Part shown: positions 2,220 through 32,273 of the stretch, piece by piece
How the letters are laid out: each line of letters starts with the position of its first letter
Numbering within the stretch: position 1 is the stretch's first letter
NCBI GenBank assembly: GCA_014237915.1
Contig: JABACC010000006.1
Coordinates: 9,510 to 73,509 of the forward strand
From: Candidatus Paceibacter sp.
Lineage (GTDB): Bacteria > Patescibacteriota > Minisyncoccia > Phycocordibacterales > GCA-2747955
Reading direction: 5' to 3'
Length of the DNA stretch: 64,000 nucleotides
Made by a program: the position numbers and the translations under genes
The notes under the pieces: model-generated
What the model was told of the DNA's origin: nothing
Seen by the model: only the letters and a program-made list of their open reading frames with translations
Database searches by the model: none

Positions 2220-2633
2220 ATGAATAAAGTTAATAGGGCTGGGTGGGAACAAACAGACCAAGAGAATAAAAAGTCTATAAATAAATTGAGTGATTACAAA
2301 CCTCTTTTGTTTGTAGAAAAGCATGAAGAGTACGTGACTTGGGATGTGATGTTAGAACGAGCAGAAAAACACGGCGTTACACTCGGAATAAATGAGGCAA
2401 CGAAGATCTTGGAAATACAAGAAGAAATACCTGATTCGTGGCAAGGATTTAATATTATTTTTCCCGGGACCAGGTTTAAGACAAATACCAACCAGTTACA
2501 ATGCCCTTTTATTTATTACAATAAAGGTGAATGGATTCTTGATTATCATTGGTATTTATATGACTTTCATCATTCAGATATTTTTGTTATAGTAAATATT
2601 CATTACAAAAATGGTAAAATAGATCATCACTAA
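2220..2633 (+). CDS. hypothetical protein, translationally coupled to the upstream ORF
   Basis: 137 aa, starting 3 nt after the previous stop. No recognisable motif. Confidence 0.35.
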   Translation: MNKVNRAGWEQTDQENKKSINKLSDYKPLLFVEKHEEYVTWDVMLERAEKHGVTLGINEATKILEIQEEIPDSWQGFNIIFPGTRFKTNTNQLQCPFIYYNKGEWILDYHWYLYDFHHSDIFVIVNIHYKNGKIDHH

Positions 2634-2642
2634 ACTAACAAA

Positions 2643-3905
2643 ATGAATAAAATAATAAATTTAGGAAAAGAAATCACTGAGCGTGGATTTGTTGCACAGA
2701 TCTCAACAGAATCAATAGATGGGATATTGGGGGATTCAAAAAAAAGAACAGCCTATATTGGAGTTGACCCAACAGCTGACTCCATTCATGTTGGTAATCT
2801 AGTCACGTATATTTTAGCTGAACATTTAATGAGGGCTGGTCACAAAACCATCTTGCTTGTTGGAGGAGCTACAGGATTAATAGGTGATCCTTCAGGTAAA
2901 GATACTGAACGTGTCTTTTCTGGTGCTGAAAAGGTTGCCCAAAGAACTGAATGCATTACAAGTCAATTAGCTGCAATCGCCGGTCTATCAAAGATGAAAA
3001 TTGTTAATAATTACGACTGGTTTAGTAAGATTGGTTCTATCGAGTTCCTTCGCGAGATTGGTAAATATTTCACAGTAAACACAATGATGAAAAGAGATTC
3101 GATCGCAAGAAGACTTGAAGGGGAGAACGGTATTTCATACACAGAATTTTCATATTCACTCATGCAAGGTTATGACTTCTATTATTTATTCAAAGAAAAA
3201 AAGTGTGATTTGCAGATTGGAGGATCAGATCAATGGGGAAATATTGTCTCTGGTATTGATTTTATTCGAAAAAAGACAGGAGAAAAAGTGTATGGGCTAA
3301 CAATCCCGCTAGTAATTGATAAAACAACCGGTAAAAAATTCGGTAAAAGTGAGGGGAATGCTATCTGGCTTGACCCAGCAAAAACGAGCTTTTATCAATT
3401 TTATCAATTTTGGATAAACGTAGACGATAGCAACGTTATTAATTATCTAAAATTATATACATTTATTTCACTGGCTGATATAGTAAATATAGAGACTGAG
3501 CATCAAGACGAGCCACACTTGCGGAAGGCACAAAAAGTACTTGCATATGAAGTCACAGAGTTTGTTCATGGAGAAGTAATAGCTAAAAAACTCGTAAGGG
3601 CAACAGAGTTGCTCTTTAAGAATGATCAACTTAATAAACTTTCAAATTCAGACGTCGATTTAATGGAAAAGTATGCTCCCATATCTAATGTTGGTAGCCA
3701 AGAAACATTATTAGATGTTATTGTCCAAAATGGACTTGCGACTAGTAAAAATGAAGGAAGAAAATTTATTATAAACGGTGCAATTAGAATTGATGGGAGA
3801 GTAGTGGATGAGAATGTTCATATTGCAAAAATCCAAACCAGTAAGCGCCTTCTTCTTCTTTCTCGCGGAAAGAAGAAGAAGATTATTATTAGGATCAAAA
3901 AATAA
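2643..3905 (+). CDS. tyrS: Tyrosyl-tRNA synthetase
   Basis: HIGH-type motif 'HVGNLV', KMSKS-type 'KFGKSEG', C-terminal S4-like domain. 420 aa. Confidence 0.9.
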   Translation: MNKIINLGKEITERGFVAQISTESIDGILGDSKKRTAYIGVDPTADSIHVGNLVTYILAEHLMRAGHKTILLVGGATGLIGDPSGKDTERVFSGAEKVAQRTECITSQLAAIAGLSKMKIVNNYDWFSKIGSIEFLREIGKYFTVNTMMKRDSIARRLEGENGISYTEFSYSLMQGYDFYYLFKEKKCDLQIGGSDQWGNIVSGIDFIRKKTGEKVYGLTIPLVIDKTTGKKFGKSEGNAIWLDPAKTSFYQFYQFWINVDDSNVINYLKLYTFISLADIVNIETEHQDEPHLRKAQKVLAYEVTEFVHGEVIAKKLVRATELLFKNDQLNKLSNSDVDLMEKYAPISNVGSQETLLDVIVQNGLATSKNEGRKFIINGAIRIDGRVVDENVHIAKIQTSKRLLLLSRGKKKKIIIRIKK

Positions 3906-4025
3906 GCAAAACATCGTGGGATTATTTAAGGTGATTGGCCTGACTTAAAGTTTTAATGAATTTGTGAATGTTATGAACAAAAACAAAAATATAAAAAGGG
4001 AAACAGAAAATATTGATATGACTAA

Positions 4026-4385
4026 TTTAATAGAACTTTTTGAGTTTATAGAAAAAACAGAAATTTCAAAAGAACAAAATATAGTATAGTCCTACAACTA
4101 AATGGAGCTATACAAAAATGTATATCAACAGTCGGCAGAAAAGAATACGATATCCTAAATATATGGGAAAGCCCCGGGTCTTATCCTAGAGATGAAAGAT
4201 TTGAGCATTTTAAAAGAACAGACGATTGCAAAAAGGAAAAATGTCAGTACTTACCTATATGCGGAGGAGGTTGTCCATGGGATTCTATGATAGCTAAAGG
4301 GTCTCTTGGTTTTGAAGTAAGATTTTGTCAAAAAGAACTTTTGGATGAAATAAACAGAGGGTTAATGAGAATTAACTATTCATAA
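4026..4385 (+). pseudogene. C-terminal remnant of a radical-SAM SPASM-domain protein, with no start codon and the N-terminal radical-SAM core absent
   Basis: Hand translation gives '...DDCKKEKCQYLPICGGGCPWDSMIAKGSLGF...'. A CxxC...CGGGC ending is typical of the SPASM/twitch C-terminus. The open frame begins right after a stop 120 nt past tyrS, and there is no ATG/GTG/TTG upstream. Confidence 0.4.
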
Positions 4386-4491
4386 TAAATCTAAAATAAC
4401 AGTCGTGCTACAATAAAGGCACGGATGTTTTTAACAATATGAATTTAAAACAAAAACTAAATAACTACACAGATAAATATAAAATAAAAAA

Positions 4492-5181
4492 ATGGGAATT
4501 TTTCCAAACTCCCAACTATATTTTTATTATAATAAGAATTCAGTTGCAGAAAAAGATATTTTAAAAATATCAGAAACTCAAGAAAAAGCTTATTTTAAAA
4601 TTACAGAAAAACTTGGATTAGAAAAACATAAAGAAAAGATAAATTATTTTTTGTATAACACAGAAGAAGAAAAAACTGAATTTATGGGCGACGATGGTTT
4701 TGCCCAAGCAATATGGCATGATTTTTCAATACATATTATTTATACAGAAAATATAAAACCCATAGGAGAACATGAGGACACTCATCTTTTAACTTTAAGT
4801 TGGGGTGTGGCTACTGGCTTTTTTCAAGAAGGTTTGGCTGAGTATATGAGTGGGTGTATTTGGAAAAATGAAAATGGAGAAAAAAAATCAGCAGAAGATT
4901 TTATAAAAAAAGCATATAAAGAAAAATTAAATAACTCCATAGAAAACTTTTTTTCTCATTTTTTTTGGAATGAAACAATTGAAGGTAAGTGGGGATACTA
5001 CTATCCTTTAGCTGGAGTTTTTACAAAATTTTTAATAGAAAAGTTTGGATTAGAAAAATACAGAGAATTTTACAAAAGCATAAATAGAAAAAATTCTTCA
5101 AAAGAAATTATTGAAAAATTCGAAACTTTTTTTGGAAATTTTAATGATAATAAAAATATTTTTGAAAATAATTTTAAATAA
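4492..5181 (+). CDS. hypothetical protein with an HExxH motif (putative zinc metallopeptidase-like)
   Basis: 229 aa. 'GEHEDTHLL' contains HEDTH, matching HExxH. No further support. Confidence 0.3.
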   Translation: MGIFPNSQLYFYYNKNSVAEKDILKISETQEKAYFKITEKLGLEKHKEKINYFLYNTEEEKTEFMGDDGFAQAIWHDFSIHIIYTENIKPIGEHEDTHLLTLSWGVATGFFQEGLAEYMSGCIWKNENGEKKSAEDFIKKAYKEKLNNSIENFFSHFFWNETIEGKWGYYYPLAGVFTKFLIEKFGLEKYREFYKSINRKNSSKEIIEKFETFFGNFNDNKNIFENNFK

Positions 5182-5207
5182 TAATTTTTTATTTTTAGAA
5201 TAAATAC

Positions 5208-5257
5208 ATCTTTCTTTTCTCTAAAATCGTTCCAAGTTCTCTTATAAAATTGCGCAT
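5208..5257. repeat. 50-bp direct repeat copy 1 (atctttcttttctctaaaatcgttccaagttctcttataaaattgcgca)
   Basis: About 90% identical to 6928..6977. Both lie immediately after a stop codon, and together they bound a 1.7-kb segment. Confidence 0.8.
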
Positions 5258-5280
5258 AATATAAAAATATAACTATATAG

Positions 5281-5496
5281 ATGGCGAAAATGGAGAATGG
5301 ACCTATAAATTTTAATGAACTTATGAACGTTCCAAATAAAAAAAGAAAAATAAAAAATAATTTAAAGAGTATTGATATGAGTAATTTAGTAGAAATTATT
5401 AAGTTTCTGGAAAATAAAAAACCAGAAGAAAAAAATAATAAGAACCTAAAGAAAAACCAAGTATTAACCTCAAAAGGAGATATTGTTAATTTATAA
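5281..5496 (+). CDS. hypothetical small basic protein
   Basis: 71 aa, Lys/Asn-rich, inside the repeat-bounded islet. Confidence 0.25.
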   Translation: MAKMENGPINFNELMNVPNKKRKIKNNLKSIDMSNLVEIIKFLENKKPEEKNNKNLKKNQVLTSKGDIVNL

Positions 5497-5506
5497 TTAA
5501 AAATAT

Positions 5507-5737
5507 TTAATATTTATTAAATTTATCTCTATACTCTAGTTCAATTTCGCTTTCAGAGATTCCTCTATTCAACAATATCTCCTTAACCTTCTTTTCTACA
5601 ATTTCTCTTTCATGAGATTCAATGAGAACCTCAGTTTCACTAAAAGTATTACCTTCTGGTGGTTTATCGTAAGTTGCAGAGAATATTATTTTATCATCAT
5701 AATCATACCCCTCTGATATTATAATTTTATGTTTCAT
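5507..5737 (-). CDS. hypothetical small acidic protein
   Basis: 76 aa. No motif recognised. Confidence 0.25.
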   Translation of the reverse strand: MKHKIIISEGYDYDDKIIFSATYDKPPEGNTFSETEVLIESHEREIVEKKVKEILLNRGISESEIELEYRDKFNKY

Positions 5738-5883
5738 AGATGTATTATAAAGGAATTATTTTTAAAAAACCATTTTAAGTTTTAGCTCATTTAATAAATT
5801 ATTTATTAAATTTAAATATGATAAAAAAAAATAGTAAAAAATAGCTTGAAATGTGTTCTTGTATTTAATATAATGTAACTAAT

Positions 5884-6444
5884 ATGAGTAAGAAAGATAA
5901 ATTAAAAAAGCTTATCTGGAAAACTATTAGTTCTTGTGGGGACAACGACGTGTATGAAACCAAATTATGGAAGTTATTGTTCTTTATTGAAGCAGATTTC
6001 TATGAAAAATATAATGAAACCATCACGGGAGTTAAATATTTAAAGAATATTCATGGTCCAACACCAGATTATAAAGTAGGGAAAAAGGCGCTTGATGAAT
6101 TAGTTGAGAGTGCATTTATTGTTGAAATTAAAGACCAATATGGGATAAAGTACCGTGTTAATAATGATTATGATATAGAACATCTATCCAGTCAACAGAT
6201 TGATTCTATCAATAACACTTGCGATAATTTTTCTGGGTTGTCTGTAAAACGATTATCTATACTATCCCATAATGACCCTGTGTACTTAATGGCTGAGAAG
6301 ATACACTCCCTACTTGATTTCGGTAACGTAAAATACAGATCAGAAGACGAGATGATTTCAAAAGATTTATCAGAAATTGACACTAGTCCAATTAAATTAG
6401 AAACTAGTGAAATTACAAAATTAAAAAAAATACTGGCTATATAA
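5884..6444 (+). CDS. Panacea-domain (DUF4065, SocA/PanA-like) putative antitoxin
   Basis: 'TKLWKLLFFIEADFYEKYNETITGVKYLKNIHGPTPDY' matches the Panacea pattern KLQKLLYFA...G.pL....f.AwkyGPVvp. An 18-nt gap to the downstream ORF suggests an operon. Confidence 0.5.
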   Translation: MSKKDKLKKLIWKTISSCGDNDVYETKLWKLLFFIEADFYEKYNETITGVKYLKNIHGPTPDYKVGKKALDELVESAFIVEIKDQYGIKYRVNNDYDIEHLSSQQIDSINNTCDNFSGLSVKRLSILSHNDPVYLMAEKIHSLLDFGNVKYRSEDEMISKDLSEIDTSPIKLETSEITKLKKILAI

Positions 6445-6461
6445 ATATAAGATAAGATTTT

Positions 6462-6911
6462 ATGGATAACATTATTTTTAATAACTTTGGTTTTTCTGTT
6501 ATAAAAACAGATAAGAAAAGATTGAGGATGCTCAAATCATTCGAAGATGATATAAATGCACACTTTAAAATTATTAGAGGTAAAATTTTCGAAATAAAAA
6601 GACCTGATAATTACGGCGGTTCTATTGGGGATTTTTTAACTAAAGTATCCCTAGAATCTAGTAATATTTTCTTTTACAAGAACAGGTTTAAAATCACTAA
6701 GCCCCCGAGTAAAGGAACTAGTGATGGTTATCGTATAGTTTTTGGCCTTATAAGGAAAGAAGATGGTTCATTTTTATATATACCCGTTTTGGTCTTTATA
6801 GCAAAAGAAGAAGAAAAAACCTTAAATGTTAATGGTAAAAAATTAAAACTAAGAAGTGCAAATTTAAAAACCATTATAAAAGAAAGGGTTTCTGATTTAC
6901 TTTCTATTTAA
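6462..6911 (+). CDS. putative toxin partner (RelE/ParE-like 'GYRIVF' core), co-operonic with the Panacea gene
   Basis: 149 aa. '...SDGYRIVFGLIRKEDGSFLYIPVLVF' resembles the GDYRIIY...LL.IgHRKdvY core of RelE/ParE-type toxins. A strong hairpin plus T-run terminator sits at 6988..7016. Confidence 0.3.
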   Translation: MDNIIFNNFGFSVIKTDKKRLRMLKSFEDDINAHFKIIRGKIFEIKRPDNYGGSIGDFLTKVSLESSNIFFYKNRFKITKPPSKGTSDGYRIVFGLIRKEDGSFLYIPVLVFIAKEEEKTLNVNGKKLKLRSANLKTIIKERVSDLLSI

Positions 6912-6927
6912 AATTATAAATAAAAGT

Positions 6928-6977
6928 ATCTTTTTCCTCTCTAAAAATCGTTCCAAGTTCTCTTACAAAATTGCGCA
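6928..6977. repeat. 50-bp direct repeat copy 2
   Basis: See 5208..5257. Confidence 0.8.
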
Positions 6978-7261
6978 AAAACGAAAAACCAAAGCGAATG
7001 CTTTGGTTTTTCTGATTTTTACAGCAGATCTAAGGGATTCGAAAAGAGGTGATTTACGACGAGCAATTGCAAGAAGTTGAGCCGGCGGGGCAGCGATTTT
7101 TTAATAAGCGTAGCGAATTTAGAACTAGCGCCGAGTCCCTTTGGCCGCGCAAAAAATAAAATATAAAAAAAATCGACTTTATTGGCCGATTTTTATTTTT
7201 TCAAATAAAAAACCCTCTCTTTAATTTTTTAAAAAAGAGAGGGTTTGTTTTGAAGAAATTA

Positions 7262-7890: not shown

Positions 7891-7996
7891 TTGCTGTTAT
7901 TGAATCCAATAATAATTATATATTTTTTAAAATTAAAGTAAAGTTTTTGTATGAATAAAAAATATGAGTTTAAAAATTAAACCCCCTCGAGAGGGA
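7891..7996. repeat. about 100-bp intergenic direct repeat copy 1; contains the palindrome ccccctcgagaggg
   Basis: Near-identical to 8628..8733 (ttgaatccaataataattatatattttttaaaattaaagtaaagtttttgtatgaataaaaaatatgagtttaaaaattaaaccccctcgagaggg). Confidence 0.85.
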
Positions 7997-8014
7997 GCTA
8001 GAATTAGTCTAACA

Positions 8015-8605
8015 CTACTCTATCTTATCAGAACTTTCTTCTAATTTTCTCAGTAGTTCATCCACTAAAGGAAAAATAGAAGTTTCTTCTGGAATTTTTA
8101 TTTTTTTGTAAAACTCATCTAGGTTTTTTCTCAAATTTTCTATAAAAGCAAGACTTTTATTTTCAAAAGAAAAATCACCTAAGCCATTATCAGTAGGAAA
8201 AATAAAAATACCTTCTTTATTTTTTTTATAAAATAAATATAAAAAAATATGAACCATTTCAAAATTTTCACAATTGGCGGAATATACCGAATATCTTAGT
8301 ATTTCTTTTCCGTGAAAATCATCTTCATTTCCTAAAACCATTGGAAGTACGGATGTACATCCAAAAGAAATAATAGATTCCATTATTTCTCCTGTTTCGT
8401 CAGACCTAGGGCTAAATATTTTGTTTTGTAAACACACTTTAAATATTAAACTAAATGATTTGATATGTATGTTTAGTAATTTTTCCAAAGCTGATATTTC
8501 ATATATTTTATAGGCATCTATTTTTTTTAGCCGCGCTTCCAGATTGCATATTTGTTCAATTGTAGCATCAATTTGTATCCGAGTTGTTAAGTCTAATGTA
8601 CCCAT
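8015..8605 (-). CDS. hypothetical protein, flanked on both sides by the 100-bp repeat
   Basis: 196 aa. No motif recognised. Confidence 0.4.
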   Translation of the reverse strand: MGTLDLTTRIQIDATIEQICNLEARLKKIDAYKIYEISALEKLLNIHIKSFSLIFKVCLQNKIFSPRSDETGEIMESIISFGCTSVLPMVLGNEDDFHGKEILRYSVYSANCENFEMVHIFLYLFYKKNKEGIFIFPTDNGLGDFSFENKSLAFIENLRKNLDEFYKKIKIPEETSIFPLVDELLRKLEESSDKIE

Positions 8606-8627: not shown

Positions 8628-8733
8628 GTTGAATCCAATAATAATTATATATTTTTTAAAATTAAAGTAAAGTTTTTGTATGAATAAAAAATATGAGTTT
8701 AAAAATTAAACCCCCTCGAGAGGGGGTTTTTAT
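8628..8733. repeat. about 100-bp intergenic direct repeat copy 2; perfect hairpin aaaccccctcgagagggggttttt
   Basis: See 7891..7996. This copy likely also acts as a bidirectional terminator. Confidence 0.85.
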
Positions 8734-8745
8734 TTTTTTAAATTC

Positions 8746-12111: not shown

Positions 12112-12183
12112 TAAAATTTAATTTTTAATTGAAATTAAAAATAGTGTGGATTTTGCTTCGCAAAATCCACGGCAAAAAATAAA
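12112..12183. repeat. about 70-bp direct repeat copy 1, containing a stem-loop of the GTGGATTTTGC family
   Basis: aatttaatttttaattgaaattaaaaatagtgtggattttgcttcgcaaaatccacggcaaaaaataaaa. Near-identical to 14013..14086. Confidence 0.75.
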
Positions 12184-12197
12184 AAATTTTACAAAAA

Positions 12198-14012: not shown

Positions 14013-14086
14013 AAATTTAATTTTAAATTGGAATTAAAAATAGTGTGGATTTTGCCTTCGGCAAAATCCACGGCAAAAAATAAAAT
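14013..14086. repeat. about 70-bp direct repeat copy 2 (terminator-like hairpin)
   Basis: See 12112..12183. Confidence 0.75.
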
Positions 14087-14161
14087 AAGATTTTTGGAAA
14101 ACAAATAAAATTTCTAAAAAATTTGTTATAATTTTAAAAATTTTATTTTAAATAAAAATTT

Positions 14162-14235
14162 GTCGGGGTAGCTCAGATGGTTAGAGCGCGGCACTCATAA
14201 CGCCGAGGTCGTGGGTTCAATTCCCACCTTCGACA
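14162..14235 (+). tRNA. tRNA with anticodon CAU (elongator Met or Ile2; cannot be distinguished)
   Basis: Hand-folded. D arm gctc/gagc, anticodon loop ctCATaa on stem cggca/cgccg (one AxC mismatch), T arm gtggg-ttcaatt-cccac, acceptor gtcgggg/cttcgac with two GU pairs. Confidence 0.65.
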
Positions 14236-17631: not shown

Positions 17632-17713
17632 GCCGGAGTGGTGGAATTGGTAGACACGCACGACTCAAAATCGTGTGCAGCAATGCGTGAGGGTTCAAGT
17701 CCCTCCTCCGGCA
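17632..17713 (+). tRNA. tRNA-Leu (anticodon CAA), type II with long variable arm
   Basis: Acceptor gccggag/ctccggc, anticodon stem cacga/tcgtg with loop ctCAAaa, long variable arm, T arm gaggg-ttcaagt-ccctc. Confidence 0.8.
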
Positions 17714-17748
17714 CAGATTTAGAGCTTAGCTTTTAATATTTTTTTGCC

Positions 17749-17776
17749 GTGGATTTTGCCGAAGGCAAAATCCACG
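17749..17776. terminator. stem-loop gtggattttgcc-gaag-gcaaaatccac (dispersed hairpin family)
   Basis: Perfect 12-bp stem with a tetraloop, flanked by T/A runs. The same stem recurs at seven sites in the window. Confidence 0.6.
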
Positions 17777-17801
17777 GCAAAAAATGTGATAAAATAAAAA
17801 A

Positions 17802-27397: not shown

Positions 27398-27581
27398 ATT
27401 TTTAAAAGTTTGGAAATTTTTAAATTTTTTTAAAAAATAATAAATAAACATTGGAAAATAAAATGGCGGAAAAAGCTTCGCTTTTTCCGCCCTCAAATTT
27501 TAAAATTTTTTTTTTCAATTTTAAAATTTTTTGGTGGATTTTGCCTCCGGCAAAATCCACTAAAACCCCCCAGATATTTTA

Positions 27582-27671: not shown

Positions 27672-28112
27672 ATGGAAAACGTTAGACAAGAAAAAAGGCT
27701 GACAGAACAACCAGTATTTAAAATTTTTGCAATACAAGTGTTAGCTGGAGGAATAACTTTTTTGGCTACAGGAAGCCTAGAATCTAGCTTAAACTACATC
27801 TTCTACTCCGGCCTCGTCTTCGGCACCTTCCTCGGCACCCACTTCTCCAACTCCACCAGCTCCACCAAATACACCGTCTTATCCGCCCTCGCCGCCGCCT
27901 TCGCCGCCTCCGTCGCCGCCTACGTCGCCCTCGCCAAATCCACCATCTTCGCCGTCATCTTCGCCGTCTTATCCGCCCTCGCCGCCGCCTTCGCCGCCAA
28001 GGAAAAAGATGGTAAATTAACTTTCTGGGGTTTTTTTGAGCAACTTCCTTTGGGAATATTTTTCATCCCTCATGCAATTGAGAGTTGTCTTGCCAAGAGA
28101 AAAAAAAAATAA
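27672..28112 (+). CDS. small Ala-rich multi-TM membrane protein containing an about 210-bp block of NNC-only codons
   Basis: 146 aa. Codons 27801..28004 are almost all NNC: Ala GCC, Leu CTC, Val GTC, Gly GGC, Thr ACC, Ser TCC/AGC, Phe TTC, Ile ATC, Tyr TAC. An exact 33-nt internal repeat ttatccgccctcgccgccgccttcgccgcc appears twice. The ORF edges are normal AT-rich sequence. Confidence 0.45.
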   Translation: MENVRQEKRLTEQPVFKIFAIQVLAGGITFLATGSLESSLNYIFYSGLVFGTFLGTHFSNSTSSTKYTVLSALAAAFAASVAAYVALAKSTIFAVIFAVLSALAAAFAAKEKDGKLTFWGFFEQLPLGIFFIPHAIESCLAKRKKK

Positions 28113-28635
28113 TAAAAAAAATATAATGTTCTTTTAGCGGGCCCCGCAAGGGCCCGCCAAAACACTCACACCTGTGAGTGTTTTTTATTAATTTTTTATT
28201 TTATAAAATTTTTTTTGGCGGATTTACCGAAGGCAAATCCGCCAAAAAATTTTAATAACAAGTTATCAAATTTTTTTATAAAAAAATATTGACTTTGTCT
28301 TCTAAATAAATATAATGGCTTCCACTTGTTTTTTTTATTTTTTTTATTTTGTAGTTTAAAAAATAAAAAGCAGGTTTGAACTTTGAAAATTAAATAGTCT
28401 TTTCAATCTCTAGAAAAATTTTTTAAATTTTTTTAGGGAAACAAAAGCAGGTAAAATTAAATTTTTACTGAACGAATACAAACTCAAACAAACAAACAAA
28501 CTCGTGTTTTTAAGATTTTTTTTAGAAAAAAATCTAGGTTTTTAAAACTCATAAAAACCGACCCAGAAAATTACTTTTTAAATTTTTTTAAAATTTAAAA
28601 AGTAAAAATTATATCTTTGAAATTTTCTAATGAAA

Positions 28636-31945
<3,310 letters not shown>

Positions 31946-32054
31946 TTTTCATTAGGAAATTTTAAGGATATAATTTTGTATTTTATTTTACAGAAAGTTA
32001 ATTCCTGTTTTTGAAAAGACTATTTAATTTTTAAGGTTATTAAAAATATTTTAT

Positions 32055-32160
32055 TCTGGTGCTTTGTCGGAGGGGTAACACCTGTTTCCATTCCGAACAC
32101 AGAAGTTAAGACCTCTAGAGCCGATGGTACTGCCTTGCGGGAGAGTAGGCAGGCGCCGGA
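32055..32160 (+). rRNA. rrf: 5S ribosomal RNA
   Basis: ccattccgaacacagaagttaag...gccgatggtactg...gagagtaggcaggcgcc. The ends pair with each other. Confidence 0.85.
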
Positions 32161-32273
32161 ATAAAGTATTTTTTTTTGTTTAAAATTTTTTTTTAAAAAA
32201 TTTTAAAACAAATTTTTAAAAAAATTTGTTTTTCTTTTTTAAAAATATATAATATAAAAATATTTAAAATTTT

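Follow-up and report, generated by a model that had tools for sequence, protein, structure and literature searches.

Within a 64-kb stretch of contig JABACC010000006.1 from Candidatus Paceibacter sp. (64,000 nucleotides, hereafter the window), we have identified two adjacent genes, panA and panT, that probably form a chromosomal type II toxin-antitoxin-like operon of the PanAT class, in which PanT would be a toxin of the RelE/HigB fold. The analysis directly supports the assignment of PanA to its domain family and of PanT to its fold, the conservation of the pair across different genomic contexts and the presence of operon signals. Judged from sequence, the two genes are quite likely to be a genuine toxin-antitoxin pair.

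The panA-panT pair and the predicted fold of PanT

The operon is defined by the following features, with protein lengths in amino acids (aa).

5846..5874, + strand: sigma-70-like promoter, TTGAAA-17-TATAAT (11/12), by consensus match
5884-6444, + strand: panA, 186-aa Panacea-domain (SocA-like) antitoxin, by PF13274, phrog_1281 and homologue alignment
6462-6911, + strand: panT, 149-aa putative toxin of RelE/HigB fold, from a previously unannotated family
6983..7012, + strand: intrinsic terminator, a 13-pair stem followed by a T-run, bidirectional in form, just past the right copy of a direct repeat

The initial annotation of this DNA had read the gene at 5884..6444 as a Panacea-domain protein and had staked its proposal on that identity. 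A search with hidden Markov models (HMMs) bears it out, as PanA matches PF13274 (SocA_Panacea, DUF4065) well above the cutoff (46.8 bits against a gathering cutoff of 25.7; E 6.5e-12), with residues 28-131 covering model positions 1-109 of 113; a domain other than PF13274 was not detected in the protein. Both of the peptides quoted at that time, KLWKLLFFIEA...GVKYLKNIHGPTP and GYRIVF, are present, and the description of a tight two-gene operon is accurate, with panA and the 149-aa open reading frame (ORF) lying 17 nucleotides (nt) apart. Furthermore, a C-terminal tail is conserved among close homologues of PanA (LSHNDPVYLMAEK...LDF.NVKYRS, then an acidic linker and a short terminal helix). The panA ATG follows the end of the promoter's -10 element by 9 nt, and the panAT mRNA may therefore be leaderless or nearly leaderless. 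The strong promoter at 5846-5874 would give rise to a nearly leaderless panA-panT transcript that ends at the hairpin at 6983-7012.

PanT itself has no match in Pfam, NCBIfam, PADLOC or the PDB (phmmer), and its matches among PHROGs are marginal. A word-indexed search of 5.8 billion clusters returned PanT itself and one protein 65% identical to it, and an exhaustive HMMER scan of 1.84 billion representatives recovered 28 PanT-family clusters, with lengths of 130-150 aa in almost all cases. Alignment of the family shows G89 and R91 to be invariant and D17, S26, K73, R75, P81, P108 and E116 to be at least 90% conserved. Most members are unnamed, and one from Candidatus Gribaldobacteria (PIZ01077.1) is labelled 'hypothetical protein' in NCBI. 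No tblastn match to PanT was found in the plasmid and phage collections. One subgroup (P0033, at 2501-3226 of locus L152; P0031; P0037) carries an N-terminal extension of 70-95 aa, and could represent a fused or differently regulated form of the protein.

The structure of PanT was modelled with AlphaFold2. An earlier model from a two-sequence alignment was unusable (predicted local distance difference test score, pLDDT, 44), and we used instead a 29-sequence alignment, which gave a confident model (pLDDT 90.5; predicted template modelling score 0.86). The model contains two N-terminal helices and a four-stranded antiparallel sheet (57-64, 67-76, 90-98 and 104-113), after which come an additional beta-hairpin (120-129) and, at the C-terminus, a helix (132-147). 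The RelE/ParE superfamily is characterized by an antiparallel beta-sheet against which N-terminal helices pack, and the PanT model has this arrangement. The structural matches, with their scores, were as follows.

5mje: HigB2, 7.9 (98 residues aligned)
7nbu: HigB1, 7.6
6af3: HigB, 7.4
1wmi: archaeal RelE, 7.0
Various entries: PfiT, PrpT, RelE, ParE, YafQ and YoeB, 5.4-6.7

No significant match was obtained with Foldseek in either the PDB or BFVD. When the PanT family profile was compared with PDB sequences, Escherichia coli RelE was the sole match, in two collinear segments (E~0.35). In a pairwise comparison with hhalign (E 5e-4, probability 31%), the first helix of PanT was aligned with that of RelE, FYK73-N-R75 with CYK52-I-K54, and G-Y-R91-I-V-F with G-Y-R61-L-V-Y. 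The additional size of PanT relative to RelE (149 against 95 aa) is accounted for by longer N-terminal helices, an insertion (77-89) between strands 2 and 3, and the C-terminal hairpin and helix. Going by the predicted structure, PanT very probably has a RelE/ParE-superfamily fold, closest to the HigB/RelE endoribonucleases.

The association of the two genes is not confined to the window. A PanT-family gene lies directly downstream of a Panacea gene in seven of the eight loci examined, in unrelated neighbourhoods; the pair is present in the window, L001, L004-7, L008-10, the P0007 contig, L151 and L153-4. Each PanA homologue (37-60% identity) is followed by a PanT homologue of 144-153 aa, with a gap of 5-17 nt or an overlap of 14 nt, and all of the PanA homologues found (7/7, one of them from Candidatus Gribaldobacteria) have PF13274. 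A Panacea gene also precedes the more distant members of the PanT family (32-36% identity). The genes that adjoin the pair differ from locus to locus.

L001: ATP synthase
L004-7: rve integrase and an Eco57I/MmeI-type restriction-modification gene
L008: SmpB and a trypsin-like protease
L151: ribosomal protein genes
L153: type I HsdR-like gene

As the pair is kept while the neighbourhoods all differ, panAT is a conserved, mobile two-gene module, in a pattern typical of mobile toxin-antitoxin pairs. A conserved pair with differing flanks is also the pattern by which Kurata et al. (2022; PMC8832971) recognize a toxin-antitoxin-like locus. In L004-L007, which are Candidatus Gribaldobacteria-like contigs carrying the PanA homologue P0009, panAT is directly followed by a 1060-aa Eco57I/MmeI-type gene and is preceded by an rve-family integrase in some contigs and by a uracil-DNA glycosylase gene in another, an arrangement that suggests a mobile defence islet.

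Possible functions of the pair

How might such a pair work? In the mechanism that we propose, PanT would cleave mRNA in a ribosome-dependent manner via K73, R75 and R91, which align with K52, K54 and R61 of RelE. Direct binding by PanA, via the Panacea core, the conserved C-terminal tail, or both, would hold PanT in an inactive state, and the loss or inactivation of PanA would free PanT and so lead to translation arrest. An mRNase activity of PanT specifically is moderately likely. A standalone Panacea domain neutralises its toxin directly, and in other PanAs C-terminal add-on helices can do so (Ernits et al., PMC10440598); given these findings, the conserved C-terminal tail of PanA is a candidate neutralising element.

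Several observations weigh against this proposal. Toxicity or neutralisation of any PanT-family member is not reported in the literature searched. The RelE/ParE/HigB HMMs of Pfam, NCBIfam and PADLOC miss PanT at E<=1, and 31 members of the PanT family, when compared with Pfam, likewise gave no toxin model match at E<=1. The RelE/ParE-like identity that the initial annotation had assigned to the 149-aa protein is upheld for its fold, by structure prediction, but was not recovered by family-HMM search. The hhalign probability for PanT and RelE is just 31%, and one member of the family (P0033, 241 aa) lies without a Panacea neighbour. Finally, counterparts of R81 and Y87 of RelE were not found in PanT; the segment at that place has an acidic character (A-x-E-E-G), and the chemistry of PanT may therefore differ or be absent.

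The pair might instead act mainly as an abortive-infection or phage-defence module, in which PanA would be a sensor that releases PanT on infection. This role is compatible with the biochemistry proposed above. It is possible because two relatives of the locus adjoin restriction-modification genes (the Eco57I/MmeI-type gene of L004-7 and the type I HsdR-like gene of L153), and Ernits et al. (PMC10440598) propose a sensor role for Panacea and tie toxin-antitoxin networks to defence systems. However, PADLOC gives no match, the locus in the window is without neighbouring defence genes, and no phage or plasmid in the searched collections has the toxin; as the main role of the pair, defence is on balance unlikely. 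The main biochemical rival to an mRNA endonuclease is a ParE-type toxin that poisons DNA gyrase, which the fold alone does not separate from an mRNase; we consider it improbable.

The direct repeats and their genomic setting

The panA-panT operon lies in a 1.7-kb islet, which the initial annotation had described as four small genes bracketed by near-identical direct repeats of about 50 bp. The four ORFs between the repeat copies are borne out by the ORF list and were also called by the source's own gene caller. The metagenomic scaffold to which the window belongs is ENA ERZ23487945, BUSC20-1_SAMN14422900 scaffold_112. In addition to panA and panT, the islet comprises the following features.

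5208..5257, no strand: left repeat copy, 27 nt past the stop of a 229-aa peptidase-like gene and 24 nt before the 71-aa ORF
5281-5496, + strand: 71-aa ORF, function not assigned, with no family match in the libraries searched
5507-5737, - strand: 76-aa ORF, convergent with the 71-aa ORF, function not assigned
6928..6977, no strand: right repeat copy, 17 nt past the panT stop, within the 3' untranslated region, ahead of the terminator

The 76-aa ORF has no match in Pfam, NCBIfam, PHROGs, PADLOC or the PDB; a HicB-like identity, suspected from its sequence pattern, found no library or PDB support.

The repeats are real, with two copies observed in the window and none expected, although 'near-identical' was a slightly generous term: 5208-5257 and 6928-6977 share 45 matches in 51 columns with a single 1-nt indel (88% overall). 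A core (5223-5256 and 6944-6977) is identical at 33 of 34 positions, and at up to three mismatches this core occurs at just these two sites in the 64 kb, where shuffling predicts none (100 shuffles). Weaker similarity reaches 5199-5267 and 6919-6988 (58/70). The sample was also assembled independently in Logan (L003/L156), and that assembly has both copies and the same gene order; the repeat is thus not an assembly artefact. It shows no secondary structure on either strand (minimum free energy 0 to -9.7 kcal/mol; z -0.1 to +1.2) and hence is not attC-like. Searches and folding ruled out a fragment of a tRNA or transfer-messenger RNA (tmRNA), an Rfam family, a terminator or an attC site, and a promoter was ruled out by the absence of a consensus match over the repeat core.

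Acquisition of the islet as a cassette, to which the repeats had first been taken to point, does not follow from them, as there is no recombinase, tRNA target, hairpin or compositional contrast, and a paralogous ORF lies outside the islet. The DNA of the 71-aa ORF (5307-5440) is 73% identical to 3948-4081, and the offset between the two keeps the reading frame. This 134-nt direct repeat covers a 41-aa and the 71-aa ORF, which share FNE..NV.NK...IDM(T/S)NL(I/V)E. It is speculation that these are precursor-peptide genes of a decayed cluster resembling those for ribosomally synthesized and post-translationally modified peptides; one of the copies adjoins a radical-SAM remnant.

One possible, if tentative, origin of the repeats is a local tandem duplication of an ancestral unit that had a small ORF ('A') at its start and the repeat ('R') at its end. 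This would yield the order A1 (3948-4081)...R1 (5199-5267)|A2 (5307-5440)...R2 (6919-6988), with the interiors later replaced or decayed and panAT arriving separately in the second unit. The staggered A...R A...R order is the expected product of such an event, and the divergence of the two pairs (98/134 and 58/70) is not significantly different (Fisher p=0.16). Furthermore, the first unit is visibly decaying, as it holds a radical-SAM/SPASM remnant at ~4190-4385, and short-range intergenic repeat pairs are common in the window (7900/8629, 48513/49005, 48930/49462 and 12111/14010). However, no similarity could be detected between the interiors of the two units, so that several extra replacement events would be required, and a 33/34 core in a block that is otherwise ~70-75% identical needs a separate cause, such as constraint or gene conversion.

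The other possibility, which we hold to be about as likely and equally tentative, is that the repeats are attL/attR-like junctions and that the 1.7-kb segment entered as a circular cassette at a repeat copy that already stood between the peptidase-like gene and the terminator of that gene. The four ORFs are bracketed exactly by the repeats, whose core is conserved far above the flanks, as would be expected of a crossover core. The sole intrinsic terminator downstream of the 229-aa gene follows the right copy, which fits an insertion between repeat and terminator. In addition, PanAT pairs of this family occur in unrelated contexts and are therefore mobile, and one relative adjoins an rve integrase. 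Against this, there is no integrase, transposase or recombinase among the called genes in the islet or within ~6 kb, no tRNA or tmRNA target, and a repeat that is unstructured. The GC content of the islet (0.26) equals that of the neighbouring genes (0.25-0.27; window overall, 0.29), and the first ORF inside the islet has its paralogue outside, at 3948-4081. Other PanT-family loci are without flanking repeats. The repeat core itself has 0 matches in the JGI metagenome and viral collections, and by BLAST in 156 fetched loci it matched solely in those from the window's own sample, the other matches being chance 14-15-mers.

Nor was an empty site found, and the searched data contain no close relative in which to look for one. 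Of the genes that could anchor such a search, the tyrosyl-tRNA synthetase (TyrRS) has its closest homologue among GTDB species representatives in a Saccharibacteria metagenome-assembled genome (54% identity), and its best match in the JGI metagenomes is at 42%. The nearest homologues of the 229-aa protein are 56-61% identical and none is syntenic; the exact protein occurs solely in the window's own sample. L152, where a PanT member lies 1.7 kb from tyrS, was considered as a syntenic comparator and rejected, since its TyrRS is 42% identical.

The panAT module sits in a decayed, low-GC, variable stretch downstream of tyrS. The radical-SAM/SPASM gene remnant at ~4190-4385 (region 4150-4385, also 3906-4190) retains the C-terminal ~65 codons (…CQYLPICGGGCPWDSMIAKGSLGFEVRFCQKELLDEINRGLMRINYS) and is broken by frameshift, with about 330 codons lost in the window. 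In relatives (L147/L148, L146), the radical-SAM gene is intact (429 aa) and immediately precedes the homologue of the 229-aa gene. The 229-aa protein (in the region 4439-5181) has an HExxH motif (HEDTH), and some of its homologues match PF13485 (Peptidase_MA_2). Homologues of this protein carry the names Patescibacteria, Parcubacteria or Candidatus Ryanbacteria; by these names, by the PanA homologue of Candidatus Gribaldobacteria and by the Saccharibacteria TyrRS, the AT-rich organism very probably belongs to the Patescibacteria (CPR). Across Patescibacteria, members of the family are common and have 244-250 aa. The window copy lacks ~20 aa at its N-terminus, and since a second ORF (4439-4564) overlaps it in a different frame, the A-run near 4484-4494 may contain a frameshift. 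On the other side of the operon, between the panAT terminator and a second hairpin (7168-7194), the segment at 7013-7165 is non-coding and has a GC content that stands out as high in this genome. Rfam gave no match to it, it folds with no better energy than shuffled versions (z -0.5 and -0.35), and it is possibly a piece of a foreign gene.

Repeat pairs of 45-113 nt are found at short range in several intergenic regions of the window, and this genome seems generally prone to duplicating intergenic segments. A 113-nt direct repeat (7900-8012 and 8629-8741, 93% identical) brackets a 196-aa gene on the - strand (8015-8605). Each copy has a G+C-rich, terminator-like palindrome (CCCCCTCGAGAGGG(GG)), and the Logan contig from the same sample breaks at the first copy. 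Further intergenic pairs of 44-79 nt, 82-89% identical, lie in 48489-49511/55644-55951 (48513/49005, 48930/49462, 48489/55644 and 48916/55908). A hairpin, GTGGATTTTGCC-loop-GGCAAAATCCAC, occurs in four copies (12144-12190, 14045-14091, 17749-17795 and 27534-27580), with an A-run after three of them and two lying near tRNA genes (tRNA-Met at 14162 and tRNA-Leu at 17632-17714); the hairpin probably serves as a terminator or processing element that has been used repeatedly.

Elsewhere in the window, a 23S rRNA match spans 28632-31952 (3321 nt against a 2925-nt model, and thus with ~400 nt of insertion or insertions) and is followed by a 5S gene at 32055-32161. A 16S rRNA gene was not detected anywhere in the window and hence does not lie immediately upstream of the 23S gene. 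Finally, 27844-27998 is a CCA/CCG-rich tandem repeat of 9/12-nt periodicity, Pro/Ser/Ala-rich if translated and strongly GC-rich against the AT-rich background.

Comparison with known systems

PanA antitoxins are known to neutralise many unrelated toxins by direct complex formation, with ParE among the partner domains, and a gene order of antitoxin first and toxin downstream is a common PanAT arrangement (Kurata et al., 2022; PMC8832971). The initial annotation had singled out the partner as being downstream and larger than a canonical RelE; the larger size is confirmed, but the order is thus no anomaly. Dataset S1 of the same study lists predicted, untested PanTs with HHpred matches to HigB-2, RelE, YoeB and ParE in antitoxin-then-toxin order, in clusters such as pT15/T14, pT31/T28 and pT70/T59 (PMC8832971). 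The combination of PanA with a RelE/HigB-like toxin is therefore already catalogued and is not a new kind of system. The locus described here resembles those PanAT systems in its PF13274 antitoxin, its antitoxin-then-toxin operon, its RelE/ParE-fold toxin, and the conservation of the pair amid changing neighbours (PMC8832971). It differs from them in a PanT family that no RelE, ParE or HigB HMM picks up and that measures 140-153 aa, whose placeable members come from candidate phyla radiation (CPR)/Patescibacteria metagenomes, the published clusters being compared by their descriptions only. It also differs in the insertion between the PanT strands that carry K73/R75 and R91, and in the C-terminal beta-hairpin and helix.

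The closest structural matches of PanT, HigB2 of Vibrio cholerae (5mje), HigB1 of Mycobacterium tuberculosis (7nbu) and HigB of Streptococcus pneumoniae (6af3), are ribosome-dependent mRNA endonucleases that share 9-14% identity with it. HigB toxins pair with HigA, a helix-turn-helix protein, and the toxin gene is usually upstream, whereas here a Panacea antitoxin gene lies upstream of the toxin gene. Similarly, PanT resembles E. coli RelE of RelBE in its N-terminal helix motif (FLDFDERALKEWRKL against VIKTDKKRLRMLKSF) and in the collinear YK-x-K/R and G-Y-R-L/I-V-Y/F motifs, a weak likeness (E 0.35); RelE, in contrast, has 95 aa and RelB as its partner, and PanT has 149 aa and a Panacea partner.

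SocAB of Caulobacter crescentus, the founding member of Panacea/SocA, shares the same antitoxin domain family (Pfam SocA_Panacea). SocB inhibits the DNA polymerase sliding clamp, and SocA is a ClpXP adaptor for SocB degradation. Unlike SocB, the toxin considered here has a RelE-like fold, and nothing points to an adaptor mechanism.

The islet as a whole is comparable to integron cassettes and att-flanked islets that carry toxin-antitoxin modules, in that a short set of genes including such a pair lies between direct repeats. However, it lacks an integrase, an imperfect palindrome of the attC type and a tRNA target, and no additional array members carrying this repeat are present. An integron gene cassette would be marked by a hairpin-forming attC site and by an IntI integrase with attI nearby; here the repeat does not fold, and an integrase is absent among the called genes within ~6 kb. 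A combined reading, which we hold to be quite improbable, would make the 140-153-aa PanTs an unrecognised branch of RelE/HigB, possibly enriched in CPR, with a different target or chemistry, and the repeat the site of a trans-mobilised, recombinase-less mini-cassette. In that improbable reading, the active site would consist of a K-x-R strand, G-x-R on the next strand and an acidic E-E replacing R81/Y87, together with the extra C-terminal hairpin-helix.

In summary, the locus leaves our understanding of PanAT and RelE-type systems unchanged, and the mobile-cassette angle is not established. What is new is a divergent, enlarged family of PanTs, of predicted RelE/HigB fold, that HMM annotation has missed. 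Several of its members come from Patescibacteria, which have reduced genomes and a poorly characterised repertoire of toxin-antitoxin and defence systems. Through this family, the panA-panT pair provides a predicted, structurally supported addition to the catalogue of toxins neutralised by Panacea antitoxins.

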